The notes: generated by a model not told the origin, from the letters alone. A DNA stretch of 13,420 bases from a virus (IMGVR_UViG_2695420863_000013); one strand, 5' to 3'. Shown: positions 5,766 through 12,963, counted from the first letter of the stretch. Made by a program: numbers and translations.

Positions 5766-6869
5766 TCAAACAATCTGGAAAATATTTCTTGGATTTGTAA
5801 TAGGTCTGTTGATGGAGAACAACTCACGAATTAAATCTTGGCTCAAGCCAGTTTTCATAAGAATTCTTAGCCAGGTTGCATCATCCAGCATTTCAATCGC
5901 CTCGGCCAGCATGCCGGGTTCTTCAGGGCGCAAAAGTTCATCACCAGGTTCAACTCTCGTATACCCTCTGGAATTAAGATGCATATAGCCAGTTCTTGCC
6001 TGTTCCTGGGTCAATAAGCCTAATGCGCTGGCTCGATAAATACACATTTTAAGGCTGATTTTCCATCTAAGTTTAAATTCAACCAGAGCATTCCAGTCGA
6101 ATTGCTTACCTCGTATTCGTGGAAATTCTTTAATGAAAGATAACCTGGGAACTAATAAGGCGCTCGAAAAGTGATCGGCTTGTGATTCCGTAAGTTTATC
6201 ACCTGTCGTTATGCCCTCATGCATTACTAAATGCCCTAATTCATGACCTAAATCAGAGCGAAATCTACATATGCTTTTTTTAACATTGTTCCTGATGATA
6301 ACAGGCCTGTTATTGTGAACAGTAAAAGCATCAACACGATCATCGACTCCCGTAACATGCGCAACGATTACCCCTAAACTCTCCGCCAATTTAACCATTG
6401 ATGATATAGGGCCAAGACCTAAATTCCAGGCACGGCGACAATCTTCTGCCACTCGCTCAATATCATTCGGAGTAAGTAATTCAGCCCCTGGGTGCTCCGG
6501 TATGTTAACGTCAGGAAATTCGATTTCACCTTCAACAGCAGAAATTATAATATTAAGAATCTCAGCCCTGGCCAATACACTATTAGTCAGCGTTTGAGTC
6601 CTGGACTTCTTACTCCGAAAATGGCAGACATCACTTTCCAGAGCGTATTTTCGTTCAGTAAAAAGAAAACTGGACTTAATCATAAGCGCTGAAGATATTA
6701 ACTCAAGACATTGCTCCGATGGCCTGCACCCCTTCTCCAGTTTGCTAACGAATTGCTTTGTCTTGCCAATTTTTTCGGCTAACTCTTCACAAGAAAGCCC
6801 AACAGCCATTCTCGCTAGTTTGAGCTTATCACCCCGATACTCAGTGAAGTTATTCACCTGATGTTCCAT
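5766..6869 (-). CDS. XRE-family HTH fused to an ImmA/IrrE-type (COG2856, Peptidase_M78-like) zinc metallopeptidase
   Basis: N-terminal HTH (LKLARMAVGLSCEELAEKIGKTKQFVSKLEKG). HEXXH zinc motif in RSDLGHELGHLVMHEG, and the downstream signature ESQADHFSSALLVP typical of COG2856. Start probably ATG 6869 (track gives GTG 6872); overlaps the upstream gene by about 20 nt. AT-rich relative to flanks. Confidence 0.75.
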   Translation of the reverse strand: MEHQVNNFTEYRGDKLKLARMAVGLSCEELAEKIGKTKQFVSKLEKGCRPSEQCLELISSALMIKSSFLFTERKYALESDVCHFRSKKSRTQTLTNSVLARAEILNIIISAVEGEIEFPDVNIPEHPGAELLTPNDIERVAEDCRRAWNLGLGPISSMVKLAESLGVIVAHVTGVDDRVDAFTVHNNRPVIIRNNVKKSICRFRSDLGHELGHLVMHEGITTGDKLTESQADHFSSALLVPRLSFIKEFPRIRGKQFDWNALVEFKLRWKISLKMCIYRASALGLLTQEQARTGYMHLNSRGYTRVEPGDELLRPEEPGMLAEAIEMLDDATWLRILMKTGLSQDLIRELFSINRPITNPRNIFQIV

Positions 6870-7500
6870 CACTGCTCACATCCAAATCTTTATCCTTCGT
6901 ACGCCGACGAAGAGGCACCTTATTAATCTCCGCTTCGTCAGGGAGTGTGTTATAATCAAGAGGCATAAGCGGCATCGATGCTGTAGATTGATGAGAAACT
7001 ATACTAATCTGAGCACCATAAGTATTAAATCCAACAAGAGCTACCTCCCAACGAGGCAGTGTGGACTCTAATTCACCATCGCCCTCTTCGGATAAAAAAG
7101 GCTCAGCTATGACTCGCCATGTAATATCTTGCTCAGCCTCAACATCACCAAACAATGAGAGCTGCTCATACTCTACTTTATTTCGACGCAGACGATGTTT
7201 CTTTTTGGGGTTATTAATGCAATCTTTGGTAAATTGTAGCGGAACTTTATTTAAAGCAACTACATAGTCCAACCCCTTGGAAATCATCTCAAGGCCAGGA
7301 ATTGCATCTTCATTTTGAATAAGATGATTTCTGACCCAATCATAAGCCCTTACACCTTCAGACCAGTTGCTGTCTAATGCGTGCTTATGATAGTACAGCT
7401 GCTCAAGTACGTTAGCGATCTCCGCCAACAAGTGGCGAACATAGTTTTCAGCAAGATAAGGTTGAAATTCCCAACAAGGAGCTAACTGATTTTCATTCAT
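6850..7500 (-). CDS. Hypothetical 216-aa protein, first gene of the two-gene module (candidate effector/toxin)
   Basis: ATG at 7500 (MNENQLAPCWEFQPYLAENYVRHLL...). No recognisable motif; has a basic patch KKKHRLRRNK and an acidic C-terminus. AT-rich. Translationally overlaps the HTH-peptidase gene. Confidence 0.55.
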   Translation of the reverse strand: MNENQLAPCWEFQPYLAENYVRHLLAEIANVLEQLYYHKHALDSNWSEGVRAYDWVRNHLIQNEDAIPGLEMISKGLDYVVALNKVPLQFTKDCINNPKKKHRLRRNKVEYEQLSLFGDVEAEQDITWRVIAEPFLSEEGDGELESTLPRWEVALVGFNTYGAQISIVSHQSTASMPLMPLDYNTLPDEAEINKVPLRRRTKDKDLDVSSDGTSGE

Positions 7501-10143: not shown

Positions 10144-10809
10144 TCAAATAAAACCAGCTGCCTTCCGGCGTTCGTATTCCTGTTTCAGCCGTTCAATTGG
10201 CGTTGGCCCTTGCGGGTGTTTCGCCCCTTCCAGTTGTCGTCGCACTGGCGGAACACTCATCCCGTTACCAACATGCTTTGCCCATTTCGTCAGTTGCCGT
10301 TCCGCAAGTCGTTTTAACTCACCCTGCGTCATCTGGCGCTCAATCCCTCTGGTACGCATTTCGAGGCAGATGTGGTACAGCACAGGCTGAGGCCACGGAT
10401 ATTTGTCGCTTCCGTCATATCGCCAGGACTCATCACGCCAGCGGCGGTACTCCTCCATCACAGCATCCACCGTCAGGCCAAATGGATTGGCCCCGCTTTC
10501 TGAAATCAGCGCCACAAACTCAGCCAGGTCCGGAGGCCATGTTTCACCCGCCCGGCAGCGGTCCATGCACTGGCGGCAGACCTGTCGGATTTGCTGCTCA
10601 GTCATCGCGCCAATCTGTGCAATCCAGAGCTTCGAAGGTGCGGCCCCGTTCTTCTGGGTCCAGCGGTTCGAATAAACCTCCCCCATGAGTTCCCACAGCT
10701 TCCAGACCGTTTCCGTCGCTGATAAATCCGTTTTCACGTTCCCACTGCTCACGTGCTGCCCGAATTTCCTGAACTGCCCGTGATGCGGTGCCACCTGGTG
10801 CTGCTGCAT
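10144..10809 (-). CDS. Replication protein P-like (lambda P family helicase loader)
   Basis: C-terminal region (…DKYPWPQPVLYHICLEMRTRGIERQMTQGELKRLAERQL…PPV…) resembles lambda P as recalled. ATG 10809 has a GGGGG Shine-Dalgarno; this start lies 211 nt inside the upstream O-like ORF, so the true start is uncertain. Confidence 0.65.
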   Translation of the reverse strand: MQQHQVAPHHGQFRKFGQHVSSGNVKTDLSATETVWKLWELMGEVYSNRWTQKNGAAPSKLWIAQIGAMTEQQIRQVCRQCMDRCRAGETWPPDLAEFVALISESGANPFGLTVDAVMEEYRRWRDESWRYDGSDKYPWPQPVLYHICLEMRTRGIERQMTQGELKRLAERQLTKWAKHVGNGMSVPPVRRQLEGAKHPQGPTPIERLKQEYERRKAAGFI

Positions 10810-11644
10810 GGTTTACCCCCTTGCTGACTGGCTTAACCTGCGCCCTGACGTGATTTACGTGACGGGCGAATTTCTGCTCCCACTGAACCTGCGTGAAAAC
10901 TTTCCCCTCCGCTGCCCAGTAGTCCCGGAAAGCGGCAAGTTCAGCAGGTGTAAATTCCGGCTCCGGCAAAGCCATCCCCCACAACGCAGCCCGTCGTCGA
11001 AAATCCGGCGACGGATGCCAGTCATCGACCATCGGAAATTTCCCGATGGGTTCGCTCAGTCCATCCAGGGATGCAGGTTCTGCTGCCTGCAACGGCGTAC
11101 CACTCGACTCACTGGTCGGAGCACTCTCGCGCACGTGCGCGTTATGTGTGGGGTTTAATTCTTTATCTGTATCTTTATCTGTCGTGACTCGTCGTGACAT
11201 GTCGTGACATATGCGTGACTCGTCGTGACACCCCTCATTCTGTTTTCGTAATTTTTCCCTCTCGCGCTGCGCTCTCTTGCGCTCTGCCGGGGATTTCGCG
11301 GTTTGTGAAACGTTGCCATTGTCCTCTTTCAGTACCTGGCGTTTTTCCCATCCGGTGATTAAATCTCCATCAAGTACCCGCCCCTGCATTGCCTGTAAAA
11401 TTGAATCAATTACTTCTTCCGTCACATCAAGCGCACTTGCTAAATCTTCCGTCGTGACATCAATGTGACCACGTAGTGACACGCCGTGACATGTCGTGAC
11501 ATTTCGTGACGCGCTCACCAGAAGGTGGATATACACTGCCATCACTGTTGCAATTGGCTGCCCTGACACCCTGGCAATTGTTCGCCACTTAGGGTCATTT
11601 GGCATGTCATGCCATAATCTGAGCCAGGCGTTAGCCATACTCAC
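10598..11644 (-). CDS. Replication initiator (O-like position) containing internal iteron arrays
   Basis: 348-aa ORF directly upstream of the P-like gene and downstream of the YdaT-like gene. GAGGTG Shine-Dalgarno with GTG 11644 or ATG 11638 as start. Two clusters of periodic repeats lie inside it. The low-complexity C-terminal tail overlaps the P-like gene and may not be real coding sequence. Confidence 0.55.
   Translation of the reverse strand: MSMANAWLRLWHDMPNDPKWRTIARVSGQPIATVMAVYIHLLVSASRNVTTCHGVSLRGHIDVTTEDLASALDVTEEVIDSILQAMQGRVLDGDLITGWEKRQVLKEDNGNVSQTAKSPAERKRAQREREKLRKQNEGCHDESRICHDMSRRVTTDKDTDKELNPTHNAHVRESAPTSESSGTPLQAAEPASLDGLSEPIGKFPMVDDWHPSPDFRRRAALWGMALPEPEFTPAELAAFRDYWAAEGKVFTQVQWEQKFARHVNHVRAQVKPVSKGVNHAAAPGGTASRAVQEIRAAREQWERENGFISDGNGLEAVGTHGGGLFEPLDPEERGRTFEALDCTDWRDD
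11150..11232. repeat. Candidate replication origin: AT-rich stretch with two CTTTATCTGT repeats, then five GTCGTGAC-type direct repeats at about 10-bp spacing
   Basis: GTCGTGAC (or a one-base variant) begins at 11181, 11191, 11201, 11213 and 11222, preceded by ttaattctttatctgtatctttatctgt. Located mid-gene in the O-like ORF, as ori-lambda is in O. Confidence 0.5.
11449..11510. repeat. Second array of six CGTGAC/GTGAC repeats at 10-11 bp spacing (iteron-like)
   Basis: GTGAC cores end at 11458, 11469, 11480, 11490, 11500 and 11510, in the 5' part of the O-like ORF. Confidence 0.45.
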
Positions 11645-11709
11645 CTCTTCTGATACCGAATCTTTTTACTCACAAATTGCCGGAAGTGATCCGGTATGAA
11701 TATTGCGAG

Positions 11710-12135
11710 TCAATGCACAGCCACAATATTTCCTGCAGGGCCACCACGATTCATCTGGTTGAAACCAGCGATCGCCACTGCGACAAAATCATCAGCGTCT
11801 CTCACCAGTCGTTCCCGCGTCTCCACCAGCTCCCGAAAATAAGCTGAACTGTGGCTGCGCATTCGGGCCACCAGCAGAGGCGGCATTGCTTTTTCGATCG
11901 CTGGTAACAACGCCTGAATTTTTTTAACCGCATCAGGAGTGTCTTTCTCCACCCAGCGGAAAATTTTCTGGGTATTGCGAGCCAGGGCTTCCGGATGGCT
12001 GTCGTCATATAATTCCGGGAACGTCATACCAAGCTCAAAATAAGCCCGGGTTATTTCAGCTGCCGGAACTTTTTCACCGTCCGGATGCGCCCAGGCATTC
12101 ATCGCCATGCGGATGTGCTCATGCCTGATTTTCAT
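11710..12135 (-). CDS. YdaT-like protein (CII-position protein of Rac-type prophages)
   Basis: 141-aa MKIRHEHIRMAMNAW...KIQALLPAIEKAMPP...NIVAVH. Start and end pattern and length match Rac YdaT as recalled. GGAG Shine-Dalgarno 9 nt upstream; overlaps the upstream HTH gene by 17 nt. Confidence 0.6.
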   Translation of the reverse strand: MKIRHEHIRMAMNAWAHPDGEKVPAAEITRAYFELGMTFPELYDDSHPEALARNTQKIFRWVEKDTPDAVKKIQALLPAIEKAMPPLLVARMRSHSSAYFRELVETRERLVRDADDFVAVAIAGFNQMNRGGPAGNIVAVH

Positions 12136-12394
12136 GAATCAACTCCGATGCATTTGGTGTGTTAGCCTTGAATCCAACAGGTAAGCCGTCGGTTGGATTC
12201 GGGTAAATATCAGGCCGGAGTTCATGAGGTGTAACCTCGAAATTCGTTACTTCAGCAACACGTAATGCTTTTTCAGGGCTGAATCTTTCATAGCCCCCCA
12301 GCACTCGACTTACATGCACCTGAGATAAACCCGTTAGCTTCCCAAACTGTAGCTGGGTGATATGTTTCTCTTTTAAATAGTCTCTTAAGTTCAT
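12119..12394 (-). CDS. Cro/YdaS-like HTH regulator
   Basis: ATG at 12394 (MNLRDYLKEKHITQLQFGKLTGLSQVHVSRVLGG...) with GAAGG Shine-Dalgarno (track ORF starts at TTG 12400). HTH motif; first gene of the leftward early operon, divergent from the repressor. Confidence 0.65.
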   Translation of the reverse strand: MNLRDYLKEKHITQLQFGKLTGLSQVHVSRVLGGYERFSPEKALRVAEVTNFEVTPHELRPDIYPNPTDGLPVGFKANTPNASELIHENQA

Positions 12395-12501
12395 AGCCAA
12401 CCTTCTACGTTATGCCTCGAGCAAATATTAGCCCCGCTAATTTTAAAGATCAATAGCCAGACTATCTTTGATAATATTGGTAAAACAAATAAACTCTATG
12501 T
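12395..12501. promoter_or_regulatory. Divergent immunity-switch region (operators and promoters between the Cro-like gene and the repressor)
   Basis: 107-bp AT-rich intergenic region between divergent HTH genes; contains the palindrome ATTAGC-CCC-GCTAAT (12427-12441) and a TAATAT -10-like element upstream of the repressor start. Confidence 0.5.
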
Positions 12502-12963
12502 ATGAAAAAAACACGCGAAGTGATTGCAACTCCAGAAGCGAGCAAGAATTTAAAAGCCGCATGGAATGCAAGAAAAAAAGAGCTGAAGCTGACTCAAGAG
12601 CTGGCGGCTGAGTTGTTGGGATTCGAATCTCAAGGCACCGTTAGCCAGTATCTGAACGGCAAGATACCGGTAAATACCGACGCTGCGCTAAAATTTGCGG
12701 CTCTGTTAAAGGTAAAACCAGAGGACATTCGAGAAGACCTTAAAGACTTAATGAATTATGTAAGATCATCAGATACTTATGATGATAACTTTTCAGGCAA
12801 AGGATGGAGGCTGGTCAATGAAGAACAGGCAGAGTTACTTAACCTCTTCGAGATTCTACCTGCGTCAGAAAAAGCCAAACTCCTTAACCAGCTACGTGGA
12901 CTAAACAAGCTCTACGAGGAAGCCTTCGAGAACATGCTGGCACTAAAGAAACGTAACCAGTAG
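12502..12963 (+). CDS. Prophage repressor, RacR-like (XRE-type HTH)
   Basis: 153-aa MKKTREVIATPEASKNLKAAWNARKKELKLTQELAAELLGFESQGTVSQYLNGKIPV...; HTH near the N-terminus; divergent from the Cro/YdaS-like gene; followed by a strong terminator. Confidence 0.65.
   Translation: MKKTREVIATPEASKNLKAAWNARKKELKLTQELAAELLGFESQGTVSQYLNGKIPVNTDAALKFAALLKVKPEDIREDLKDLMNYVRSSDTYDDNFSGKGWRLVNEEQAELLNLFEILPASEKAKLLNQLRGLNKLYEEAFENMLALKKRNQ

Follow-up and report, generated by a model that had tools for sequence, protein, structure and literature searches.

A probable iteron-type origin of replication within the gene that encodes the initiator of a Rac-like lambdoid prophage

That a replication origin can lie inside the gene for its own initiator is a principle long established, with lambda, SPP1 and pSK41 as examples. 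In the case of ori-lambda, gene O contains four iterons, each 18 bp long, together with an AT-rich tract of 38 bp (PMC3349717). Stx phages carry six iterons, the extra ones being modulatory, and lambda O also binds the single-stranded form of the AT-rich region (PMC7466680). The SPP1 G38P gene likewise contains its own origin, oriL, which is made up of repeats in direct orientation plus a DNA-unwinding element rich in AT, with a second cluster (oriR) located elsewhere (PMC6316719). In the case of pSK41, a DnaD-like winged-helix N-terminal domain binds Rep boxes situated centrally in rep, the linker encoded by ori is dispensable, and the C-terminal domain is partner-specific; in the natural chimera pPR9, the N-terminal domain and ori have been swapped together as a module of ~500 bp (PMC5703833). 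The Rep boxes themselves are semi-palindromic around an A-tract (PMC7145576). With respect to prophages of the Rac type, open papers state the existence of the Rac origin oriJ and give no sequence definition of it, and the Eru1-3 types defined for non-lambdoid Stx replication regions are different modules (PMC8044961).

The DNA analyzed here, a stretch of 13,420 nt of viral sequence (hereafter the window), contains the early region of a prophage of the lambdoid, Rac-like type, whose replication initiator gene has two arrays of short direct repeats. From the arrangement of this sequence we consider it likely that the repeats form an iteron-type origin, located inside the prophage's own initiator gene and working in the manner of ori-lambda, SPP1 oriL and the pSK41 ori. 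No description of this iteron family was found in the open-access literature, a search that may miss older subscription papers.

Gene order and the initiator protein

A cI-like repressor gene is located on the plus strand of the window at 12502-12963, and the minus strand encodes a Cro/YdaS-like HTH protein (12119-12400), a CII/YdaT-like protein (11710-12135), the replication initiator and a lambda-P-like helicase loader (10144-10605). The CII/YdaT-like gene lies directly upstream of the initiator gene, which occupies 10598-11638 when the PGAP start is used (346 aa) and extends as an open reading frame to a GTG codon at 11644 (348 aa). The loader gene and the stop codon of the initiator gene share an 8-nt overlap, and genes of the DUF1627 and DUF977/Ren-like types are found past the loader gene. 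A stretch of 1113 nt across the initiator gene has a 100%-identical counterpart in E. coli 118UI, within a prophage that adjoins ompW and carries an integrase and an excisionase. Among 5426 complete genomes of E. coli, 2564 contain related sequence and 658 have near-full-length matches, at up to six places per genome; the carriers include O157-type strains with several copies each.

The initiator protein falls into the PHROG replication-initiation families phrog_1408 (8.8e-117) and phrog_3729, and a Pfam DnaT domain is recognized at residues 203-269 (10832-11032, minus strand), in line with the 100%-identical E. coli record, in which the product is annotated as having a DnaT-like ssDNA-binding domain. 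The full-length DnaT model NF002770 aligns with residues 192-278 of the C-domain only, scoring 97.4 bits against a cut-off of 201. This C-domain is 56-58% identical to residues 84-153 of DnaT, which make up its ssDNA-binding domain, and superposes on it at 1.0 Å. The loader scores 59.3 bits against a cut-off of 26 with Pfam Phage_lambda_P (PF06992, 5.2e-16), and it also matches phrog_109, 'P-like helicase loader' (2.2e-63). In a related record PGAP annotates it as a protein of 153 aa, shorter than lambda P.

The N-terminal part of the initiator, by comparison, has no match among Pfam or NCBIfam models. Specifically, the protein does not match Phage_rep_O (PF04492), even at E <= 5 with the N-domain alone, the Pfam model for RepA_N (PF06970), or PF09681/TIGR01714. 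One relative (L003) gives a weak full-length match to the latter pair, with E = 0.12 and 12.8 bits for PF09681 (cut-off 23.3) and E = 0.016 and 15.4 bits for TIGR01714 (cut-off 49.8), and the NCBI pipeline names close relatives 'phage replisome organizer'. The gene had been called O-like in a preliminary description of this DNA. The designation holds in the functional sense, the gene being an analogue of lambda O; it does not extend to detectable sequence homology, given the result with Phage_rep_O.

Structural features of the initiator were predicted with AlphaFold using 39 homologues (mean pLDDT 71). The N-domain is modeled with confidence as helices at residues 2-14, 16-25, 29-45, 63-70 and 74-84 followed by a beta wing at 85-96, and its top replication-related fold matches are DnaD-NTD and 4pta. 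On the basis of this model, the N-domain appears closest to a winged helix of the DnaD-NTD/RepA_N type. Residues 1-100, encoded at 11339-11638 on the minus strand, are presumed to constitute the iteron-binding domain. Two segments of the model stand out from the confident parts, which include the C-domain: a lower-confidence loop at residues 46-62, and a disordered stretch at residues 145-194. As described below, both are encoded by DNA that carries the candidate origin elements.

Phased repeats, an AT-rich tract and selection on the DNA

The repeats have the core GTGAC on the plus strand, which reads GTCAC on the gene strand. In gene direction, array A (11451-11510, minus strand) comprises six units with the core GTCAC[G] and spacings of 10, 10, 10, 11 and 11 bp, and it encodes the loop of the N-domain (residues 43-63). 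Array B (11181-11229, minus strand) lies ~230 bp further on and comprises five ATGTCACGAC-type units with spacings of 10, 11, 10 and 10 bp; it encodes residues 137-153, at the start of the linker. On the plus strand, GTGAC begins at 11454, 11465, 11476, 11486, 11496 and 11506 in array A and at 11184, 11194, 11204, 11215 and 11225 in array B, so that 11 of the 20 copies of this word in the 13.4-kb window sit within two arrays of ~50-60 bp. Longer words are still more concentrated, with all six copies of GTCGTGAC and seven of the eight copies of TCGTGAC in the window residing within the arrays. CGTGAC is present in 9 of the 11 units, those at 11465 and 11476 being degenerate, and the full unit on the gene strand can be written as (A)TGTCACGAC with a step of 10 or 11 bp. 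Tandem Repeats Finder detected period-10 arrays at 11181-11229 and 11476-11510, and a repeat search returned 7-copy families with spacings of 10/10/21 and 10/10. The counts and the Tandem Repeats Finder output thus bear out the two GTGAC arrays, of five and six units, that had been listed in the preliminary description.

Directly after array B in gene direction is an AT/purine-rich tract, ACAGATAAAGATACAGATAAAGAATTAAA, at 11150-11182 on the minus strand, in which ACAGATAAAGA occurs twice on the gene strand. The two TCTTTATCTGT repeats previously noted in an AT-rich stretch are indeed present at 11160-11170 and 11172-11182. The tract is 70% AT, as opposed to 46% for the gene, and represents the least stable 35-bp window of the entire gene (z = 3.4), which makes it a candidate DNA-unwinding element. 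Beyond it, again in gene direction, is a perfect 14-bp GC-rich palindrome, CGCGCACGTGCGCG, at 11128-11141, an element without strand polarity. For ori-lambda, too, an AT tract with one purine-rich strand and a palindrome on its far side have been described. Array B, the AT tract and the palindrome are all situated in DNA that encodes the disordered linker, the stretch at residues 145-194 taking in the greater part of array B. On its antisense strand the palindrome has a terminator-like score, of a kind found at chance frequency. A scan of 10900-12550 for promoters and terminators returned none within the arrays and no promoter-like site adjoining either of them.

A single inverted copy of the core, CGTCACAT, is found on the plus strand at 11418-11427 (core 11421-11425), 33 nt downstream of the last unit of array A in gene direction. 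It is present in 18 of 18 relatives of the GTC core class (see below) that have array A, mostly at +33, and in half of the GCA class, and is missing from other classes. The significance of this copy is uncertain, and the same DNA codes for a conserved L-D-V-T. We considered it as an element co-varying with the iterons and retain it as no more than a side observation, as it fails outside the GTC class and half of the GCA class and coincides with conserved residues.

In terms of the origin of the arrays, chance and coding constraint are excluded as their source. The units fall in all three reading frames, where they are translated as VTT, SR or CH(D/G), and this use of three frames together with the 10-11-bp period means that a peptide repeat cannot have given rise to them. 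In 20,000 synonymous recodings, the expected numbers of GTCAC in the two array segments were 0.83 and 0.95, as compared with the observed 6 and 5 (P < 5e-5 and 1e-4). The same test applied to the genes of four distant relatives gave P <= 0.009, a conservative codon model included. Selection on the DNA is also evident among close relatives, where a gap-free alignment of 42 distinct modules shows no variation in the GTCAC cores of array A. Third-codon sites are polymorphic at 6 of 22 positions inside the cores versus 90 of 144 outside. We draw on array A and this third-codon contrast only, as ungapped analysis of array B is confounded by 10/11 register shifts and differing C-terminal modules.

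Conservation and modular exchange among relatives

A close set of 80 IMG/VR loci with 84-100% identity, representing 48 distinct E. coli N-modules, was used to follow the number of units. Expressed as units in arrays A and B, respectively, the counts were (6,5) in 30 modules, (6,4) in 13, (4,5) in two, and (5,3), (6,6) and (6,9). Array A thus contains four to six units in relatives, with in-frame changes of 21 bp, and array B three to nine. The length change inspected directly was that of phage 689R5, which lacks 21 bp (7 aa) of array A in frame. A tblastn comparison of the N-domain led to phages of Aeromonas (69%) and Pseudomonas (63%) in which the core is again GTCACG, the arrays occupy the same two positions and array B is followed by an AT/purine tract. 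The same architecture is found in the Ralstonia phage Hennie (37%) with the core GCAACG, and a metagenomic phage (46%) has the core G(T/A/G)AACGC.

To cover more distant relatives, two IMG/VR scans were combined into a set of 160 loci with 30-70% identity, of which 150 have a recognizable gene. An array was scored where the N-half of the gene contained three or more copies of one 5-mer at a spacing of 10/11 bp. Arrays of at least three units were detected in 145 of the 150 loci (96.7%), versus 2.8% of 284 flanks and 1.9% of 750 codon shuffles, and arrays of at least four units in 79% of the loci versus 0% of controls. The mean spacing between units in this distant set is 10.2 bp. The core differs between loci (GCAACG, GTAACG, CGAACG and others), and what remains is its position, the 10-bp phasing and the AT-rich flank. 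When placed in register, the core takes the form NNN-ACG(C), and the loci fall into the classes CGA (43 loci), GTC (28), GTA (23), GTG (14), GAA (13), GCA (12) and GGA (11). Of 138 distinct loci in the distant set, 134 have array B and 84 have array A. The presence of array A in only ~60% of distant relatives indicates that it is not essential to the design.

The elements next to array B are similarly widespread. The 40 nt that follow it are 76% purine on the coding strand and average 62.5% AT as compared with 42.9% for the gene, the value exceeding that of the gene in 98.5% of 137 loci (P = 3.6e-24). A GC-rich inverted repeat begins at a median of 41 nt past the last unit, and a perfect stem of at least 7 bp is present in 41% of loci versus 5% of control segments (P = 4.6e-21).

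The class of the core also follows the similarity of the N-domain. With the array-coded residues left out of the computation, nearest neighbors agree in core class with a concordance of 0.61, versus 0.17 when permuted; concordance is 0.08 where identity is 20-40% and climbs to 0.83 where it exceeds 80%. Since the iterons lie physically within the module that encodes the N-domain, co-inheritance of the two is unavoidable and does not in itself reveal what binds them. A search for covariation between residues and iteron class returned as its top columns the array A-coded residues themselves, a trivial result, and no signal at the predicted recognition helix (residues 74-84). Some close protein pairs (70-86% identity) have differing majority triplets, and some arrays mix triplets, so that the variable triplet may not be a strict determinant of specificity.

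Comparison by BLAST with phages and E. coli genomes revealed that the gene splits at 11160-11180, inside the AT tract. The P-like gene and the C-half of the initiator (10144 to ~11164-11180) are 90-91% identical to Rac-SA53 and PPompW phages, and the N-half with both arrays (11160-11644) is 87-88% identical to Evi, Tritos and 689R5. In Rac-SA53 the N-domain is a DUF1376 domain and GTCAC arrays are lacking, yet both the AT tract and the palindrome are retained. Phage 689R5 shares its N-domain and arrays with the window, joined to an unrelated C-terminal region, and is without a P-like gene. These swaps indicate that the DNA-binding half moves with the repeats and the other half with the loader, as in the logic of lambda. 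The possibility that the arrays are simply oriJ was ruled out, in that Rac-SA53, the one Rac-type phage examined, carries a DUF1376-type N-module lacking them.

Competing explanations, proposed mechanism and known systems

Two features of iteron-type theta origins in general are found together in the window: phased copies in the initiator gene that are conserved at the DNA level, and an adjacent AT-rich unwinding element. Several other explanations for the repeats must nonetheless be weighed against an origin. A mainly regulatory function, above all for array A, with the repeats bound by the initiator or by some other protein of phage or host and acting by way of autoregulation, titration/handcuffing, a transcriptional roadblock within the initiator gene or binding of the CII/YdaT-like protein, is improbable in our estimation, though it has the most to recommend it among these alternatives. 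The lambda counterpart of the CII-like (YdaT) regulator recognizes direct repeats 10 bp apart. The CII/YdaT-like gene lies directly upstream, extra iterons with a modulatory role are known in Stx phages (PMC7466680), and array A, being ~230 bp from the AT tract, missing in ~40% of relatives and flanked by a conserved inverted unit, fits an auxiliary role better than that of a core origin. Array B, however, always has beside it an AT/purine tract and then a GC hairpin, an arrangement that belongs to an origin rather than an operator, and the arrays have no promoter-like site in or beside them. Moreover, there are relatives with arrays whose upstream genes are unrelated to YdaT, for example the Ralstonia and Pseudomonas phages. 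A Rac-type phage with a gene annotated as ydaT, a C-half and loader that are 90-93% identical to those of the window and a different N-domain is without GTCAC arrays. Still less probable is that the arrays are simple repeats prone to slippage or linkers for module exchange, with no role in protein binding, persisting because the protein segments concerned accept any sequence and because the repeats favor recombination between initiator modules. Such an explanation would account for their location in DNA coding for a loop and a disordered linker, for the variable number of units in close relatives and for the mosaic joint beside array B. It is contradicted by cores that stay invariant amid variable synonymous sites (6/22 vs 90/144), by the sharing of one core across E. 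coli, Aeromonas and Pseudomonas phages, and by the 10-11-bp phasing that 145 of 150 loci retain despite differences in the core, a pattern that neutral slippage does not predict; the recombination joint, furthermore, falls in the AT tract and not in the iterons.

Centromere-like sites for partition and sites recognized in packaging can both consist of short direct repeats with helical phasing, as does parC of plasmid R1, and two clusters of about five direct repeats of 10-11 bp bear a likeness to parC. We regard either role as highly unlikely, for a related record, in which the prophage sits beside ompW with its integrase and excisionase, is without partition genes in the region, and the arrays stay with the initiator gene in phages whose genome backgrounds and hosts differ widely, always coupled to the AT tract inside that gene. 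That the repeats are the by-product of an amino-acid motif or a chance cluster carries a negligible probability. The recurring CHD, SR and VTT seen in the protein, which could suggest a peptide motif, are one DNA word read in three frames, and the recoding results (P <= 1e-4) and the clustering of 11 of 20 copies in two arrays speak against chance.

Taken together, these considerations leave an iteron-type origin as the likely function of the repeats. As part of this same reading, with the same likelihood attached, the origin proper would consist, in gene direction, of array B, the AT/purine tract of ~33 bp and the 14-bp GC palindrome. Judged by its sequence context, array B is the putative origin-proximal iteron array, and array A is probably an auxiliary cluster serving in bridging, cooperativity or control. 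The iterons lie where the protein tolerates constraint, in a loop and a disordered linker, which fits an origin within coding DNA. The preliminary description had offered an origin-iteron interpretation, a parallel to ori-lambda and the idea of a different initiator-origin type, and had asked for conservation beyond coding constraint. The first is supported by the selection on the DNA, by the conserved number, phase and position of the units, by the pairing of initiator and P-like loader, and by the module boundary at the AT tract. The parallel is upheld by the location of the origin in the initiator gene and the joint at the AT tract, and the difference in type by an N-domain that is not lambda-O-like and by contiguous units of ~10 bp instead of 18-19 bp. 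Conservation, for its part, held in close and distant relatives alike.

With respect to mechanism, the structural model, the linkage of the N-half with the repeats and the agreement of core class with N-domain similarity suggest, indirectly, that the N-terminal winged helix would bind the iterons. A site period of 10-11 bp would place the protomers on one face of the helix and allow an oligomeric nucleoprotein complex to assemble, possibly one that bridges arrays A and B. Formation of this complex may then stress and open the adjacent AT tract, whereupon the C-terminal DnaT-like domain would be expected to bind the single strand so exposed and to recruit host DnaB jointly with the P-like protein inherited alongside it. 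A more elaborate and decidedly tentative version, which we think possible but would not favor, has a DnaD-NTD-like initiator polymerizing on contiguous 10-bp NNN-ACG(C) iterons. The triplet, with at least seven classes, would act as a specificity code for prophage replication-compatibility groups, the loop-coding array A would couple protein to site or serve in bridging, and the locus would be the first recognized example of a very large class of origins in proteobacterial temperate phages, one that our searches did not find described.

What is new relative to the classical principle, as far as the open-access literature searched goes, is the core with a variable triplet and a family-wide layout of phased ~10-bp iterons, AT/purine tract and GC hairpin in nearly all of ~150 divergent initiator genes of phages and prophages, whose sources are metagenomes and hosts of the Entero-, Pseudomonas-, Aeromonas- and Ralstonia-type. 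With this layout as a rule, origins can be located from sequence in a family that lacks a Pfam model for its N-domain, and can be sorted into candidate specificity classes. It also yields testable ideas regarding origin specificity and prophage cross-talk, the use of a host-derived DnaT domain in phage initiation, and DNA function within coding sequence, the iterons being translated in all three frames and confined to a loop and a disordered part of the protein.

Compared with known systems, the locus resembles ori-lambda in that the proposed origin is in the middle of the initiator gene, the iterons are followed by an AT tract, the N-half goes with the iterons and the C-half with a P-type loader, and the joint between modules is at the origin. 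It departs from ori-lambda in its contiguous direct units of ~10 bp with an 8-bp core, as opposed to the four to six units of 18-19 bp in lambda and Stx phages, in having two arrays, one of them inside the coding region of the DNA-binding domain, and in the DnaT-like nature of the C-domain. Unlike in SPP1, the second cluster is ~230 bp away in the same gene rather than at a distance of 13 kb, and the partners would be the P-like loader and host DnaB instead of G39P and G40P. The protein differs from DnaT itself in being phage-encoded, fused to an origin-binding domain and without the DnaT N-domain. The absence of above-threshold matches to PF04492, PF09681/TIGR01714 and PF06970, along with the ~10-bp, contiguous, direct geometry of two arrays, points to a known principle in a new variant.

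The remaining comparison is with the RepA_N replicons (PF06970), from which the locus is set apart by its occurrence in a proteobacterial temperate phage and not a Firmicute plasmid, by a P-like loader in place of DnaG as partner, and by iterons that are shorter than Rep boxes, purely direct and contiguous. The predicted fold of its N-domain may correspond to their DnaD-NTD-like winged helix, and the position of the proposed origin, inside the initiator gene in DNA for a segment predicted to be disordered, would fit that of theirs; its N-terminal domain and iterons move as one module, like the unit swapped in pPR9. By analogy, it is pSK41 that the design of this putative origin would appear to match most closely.

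Variation and an inverted core near the iteron arrays

With respect to the two iteron arrays in the initiator gene, unit number was found to differ among E. coli relatives (loci L011-L090, including L087, IMGVR_UViG_2563366853_000009), with 3-9 units in array B (11181-11229 in the window) and 4-6 in array A (11451-11510). These differences suggest that the arrays often expand and contract. The sole length change inspected directly, in phage 689R5, is a 21-bp loss that preserves the reading frame. In the deposited genome of Escherichia phage 204576, the initiator gene is frameshifted at gene nt ~315, and its arrays of 4 and 5 units, as well as the AT tract, are intact despite this frameshift. 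The frameshift may have arisen as an error in sequencing, or the gene may be decaying while its origin is preserved.

A single inverted iteron core also lies at 11418-11427, 33 nt past array A. When relatives are grouped by the variable triplet of the iteron core, an inverted core near array A is present in all GTC-class relatives having that array (18/18), as well as in half of the GCA-class relatives, where it has the core sequence of that class. In the window this element overlaps the codons of conserved residues L-D-V-T and is considered here a candidate DNA signal only.

The DnaT-like domain and the helicase loader

The C-domain of the initiator (window 10832-11032, aa 203-269) shares 56-58% identity with the ssDNA-binding domain of host DnaT, and this resemblance suggests a fairly recent exchange between the phage C-domain and the host gene, as well as a possible interplay of the DnaT-like domain with the PriA/PriB/DnaT restart primosome. 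The adjoining P-like helicase loader ORF (10144-10809, - strand) has an open frame of 221 codons, ~200 nt of which lie within the initiator gene; as annotated, the gene encodes 153 aa from a start at 10605, with an overlap of 8 nt. The Pfam alignment of this protein starts at position 27 of the 162-position profile, which suggests a P-type loader shortened at its N-terminus.

Other features of the window and comparison with 118UI

Three tRNA genes (Arg-TCT, Arg-TCG and a CAT-anticodon tRNA) are located at 1197-1446 on the - strand, the last being assigned as Met by ARAGORN and as Ile by PGAP in a related record. Clusters of this kind are a typical late-region feature in prophages of the lambdoid and Stx types. 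Within the ORF at 5766-6872, a 20-nt unit, ATGCCCTAATGCATGACCTAA, is tandemly repeated (2.1 copies) at 6211-6255, where a period-12 repeat overlaps it. When the window is compared with the E. coli 118UI record, which is 100% identical over the initiator gene, the coordinate offset at the tRNA cluster and that at the initiator gene are ~586 bp apart. This means that the window either carries an indel relative to 118UI or derives from a different strain.

Comparison with hairpin-bearing loci and Rac-SA53

Many distant loci (for example L005, at gene nt ~455-490, L108, L173, L224 and L231) carry a stereotyped GC hairpin after the AT tract, ACCCCCC-TTA-CCCCCC...GGGGGG, which codes for P-P-Y-P-P-like peptides across unrelated lineages, whereas the window has AACCCC followed by CGCGCACGTGCGCG. 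The ydaU gene of Escherichia phage Rac-SA53 encodes a DUF1376-type initiator and has the AT tract (11150-11182 in the window), the palindrome (11128-11141), the C-domain and the loader in common with the window. GTCAC arrays are absent from this initiator gene, and in their place, immediately upstream of the AT-rich tract (gene nt ~425-460), is an inverted repeat, TGTTCAAACA-N13-TGTTTGAACA, that may be a binding site of DUF1376-type (Rac/oriJ-type) initiators.
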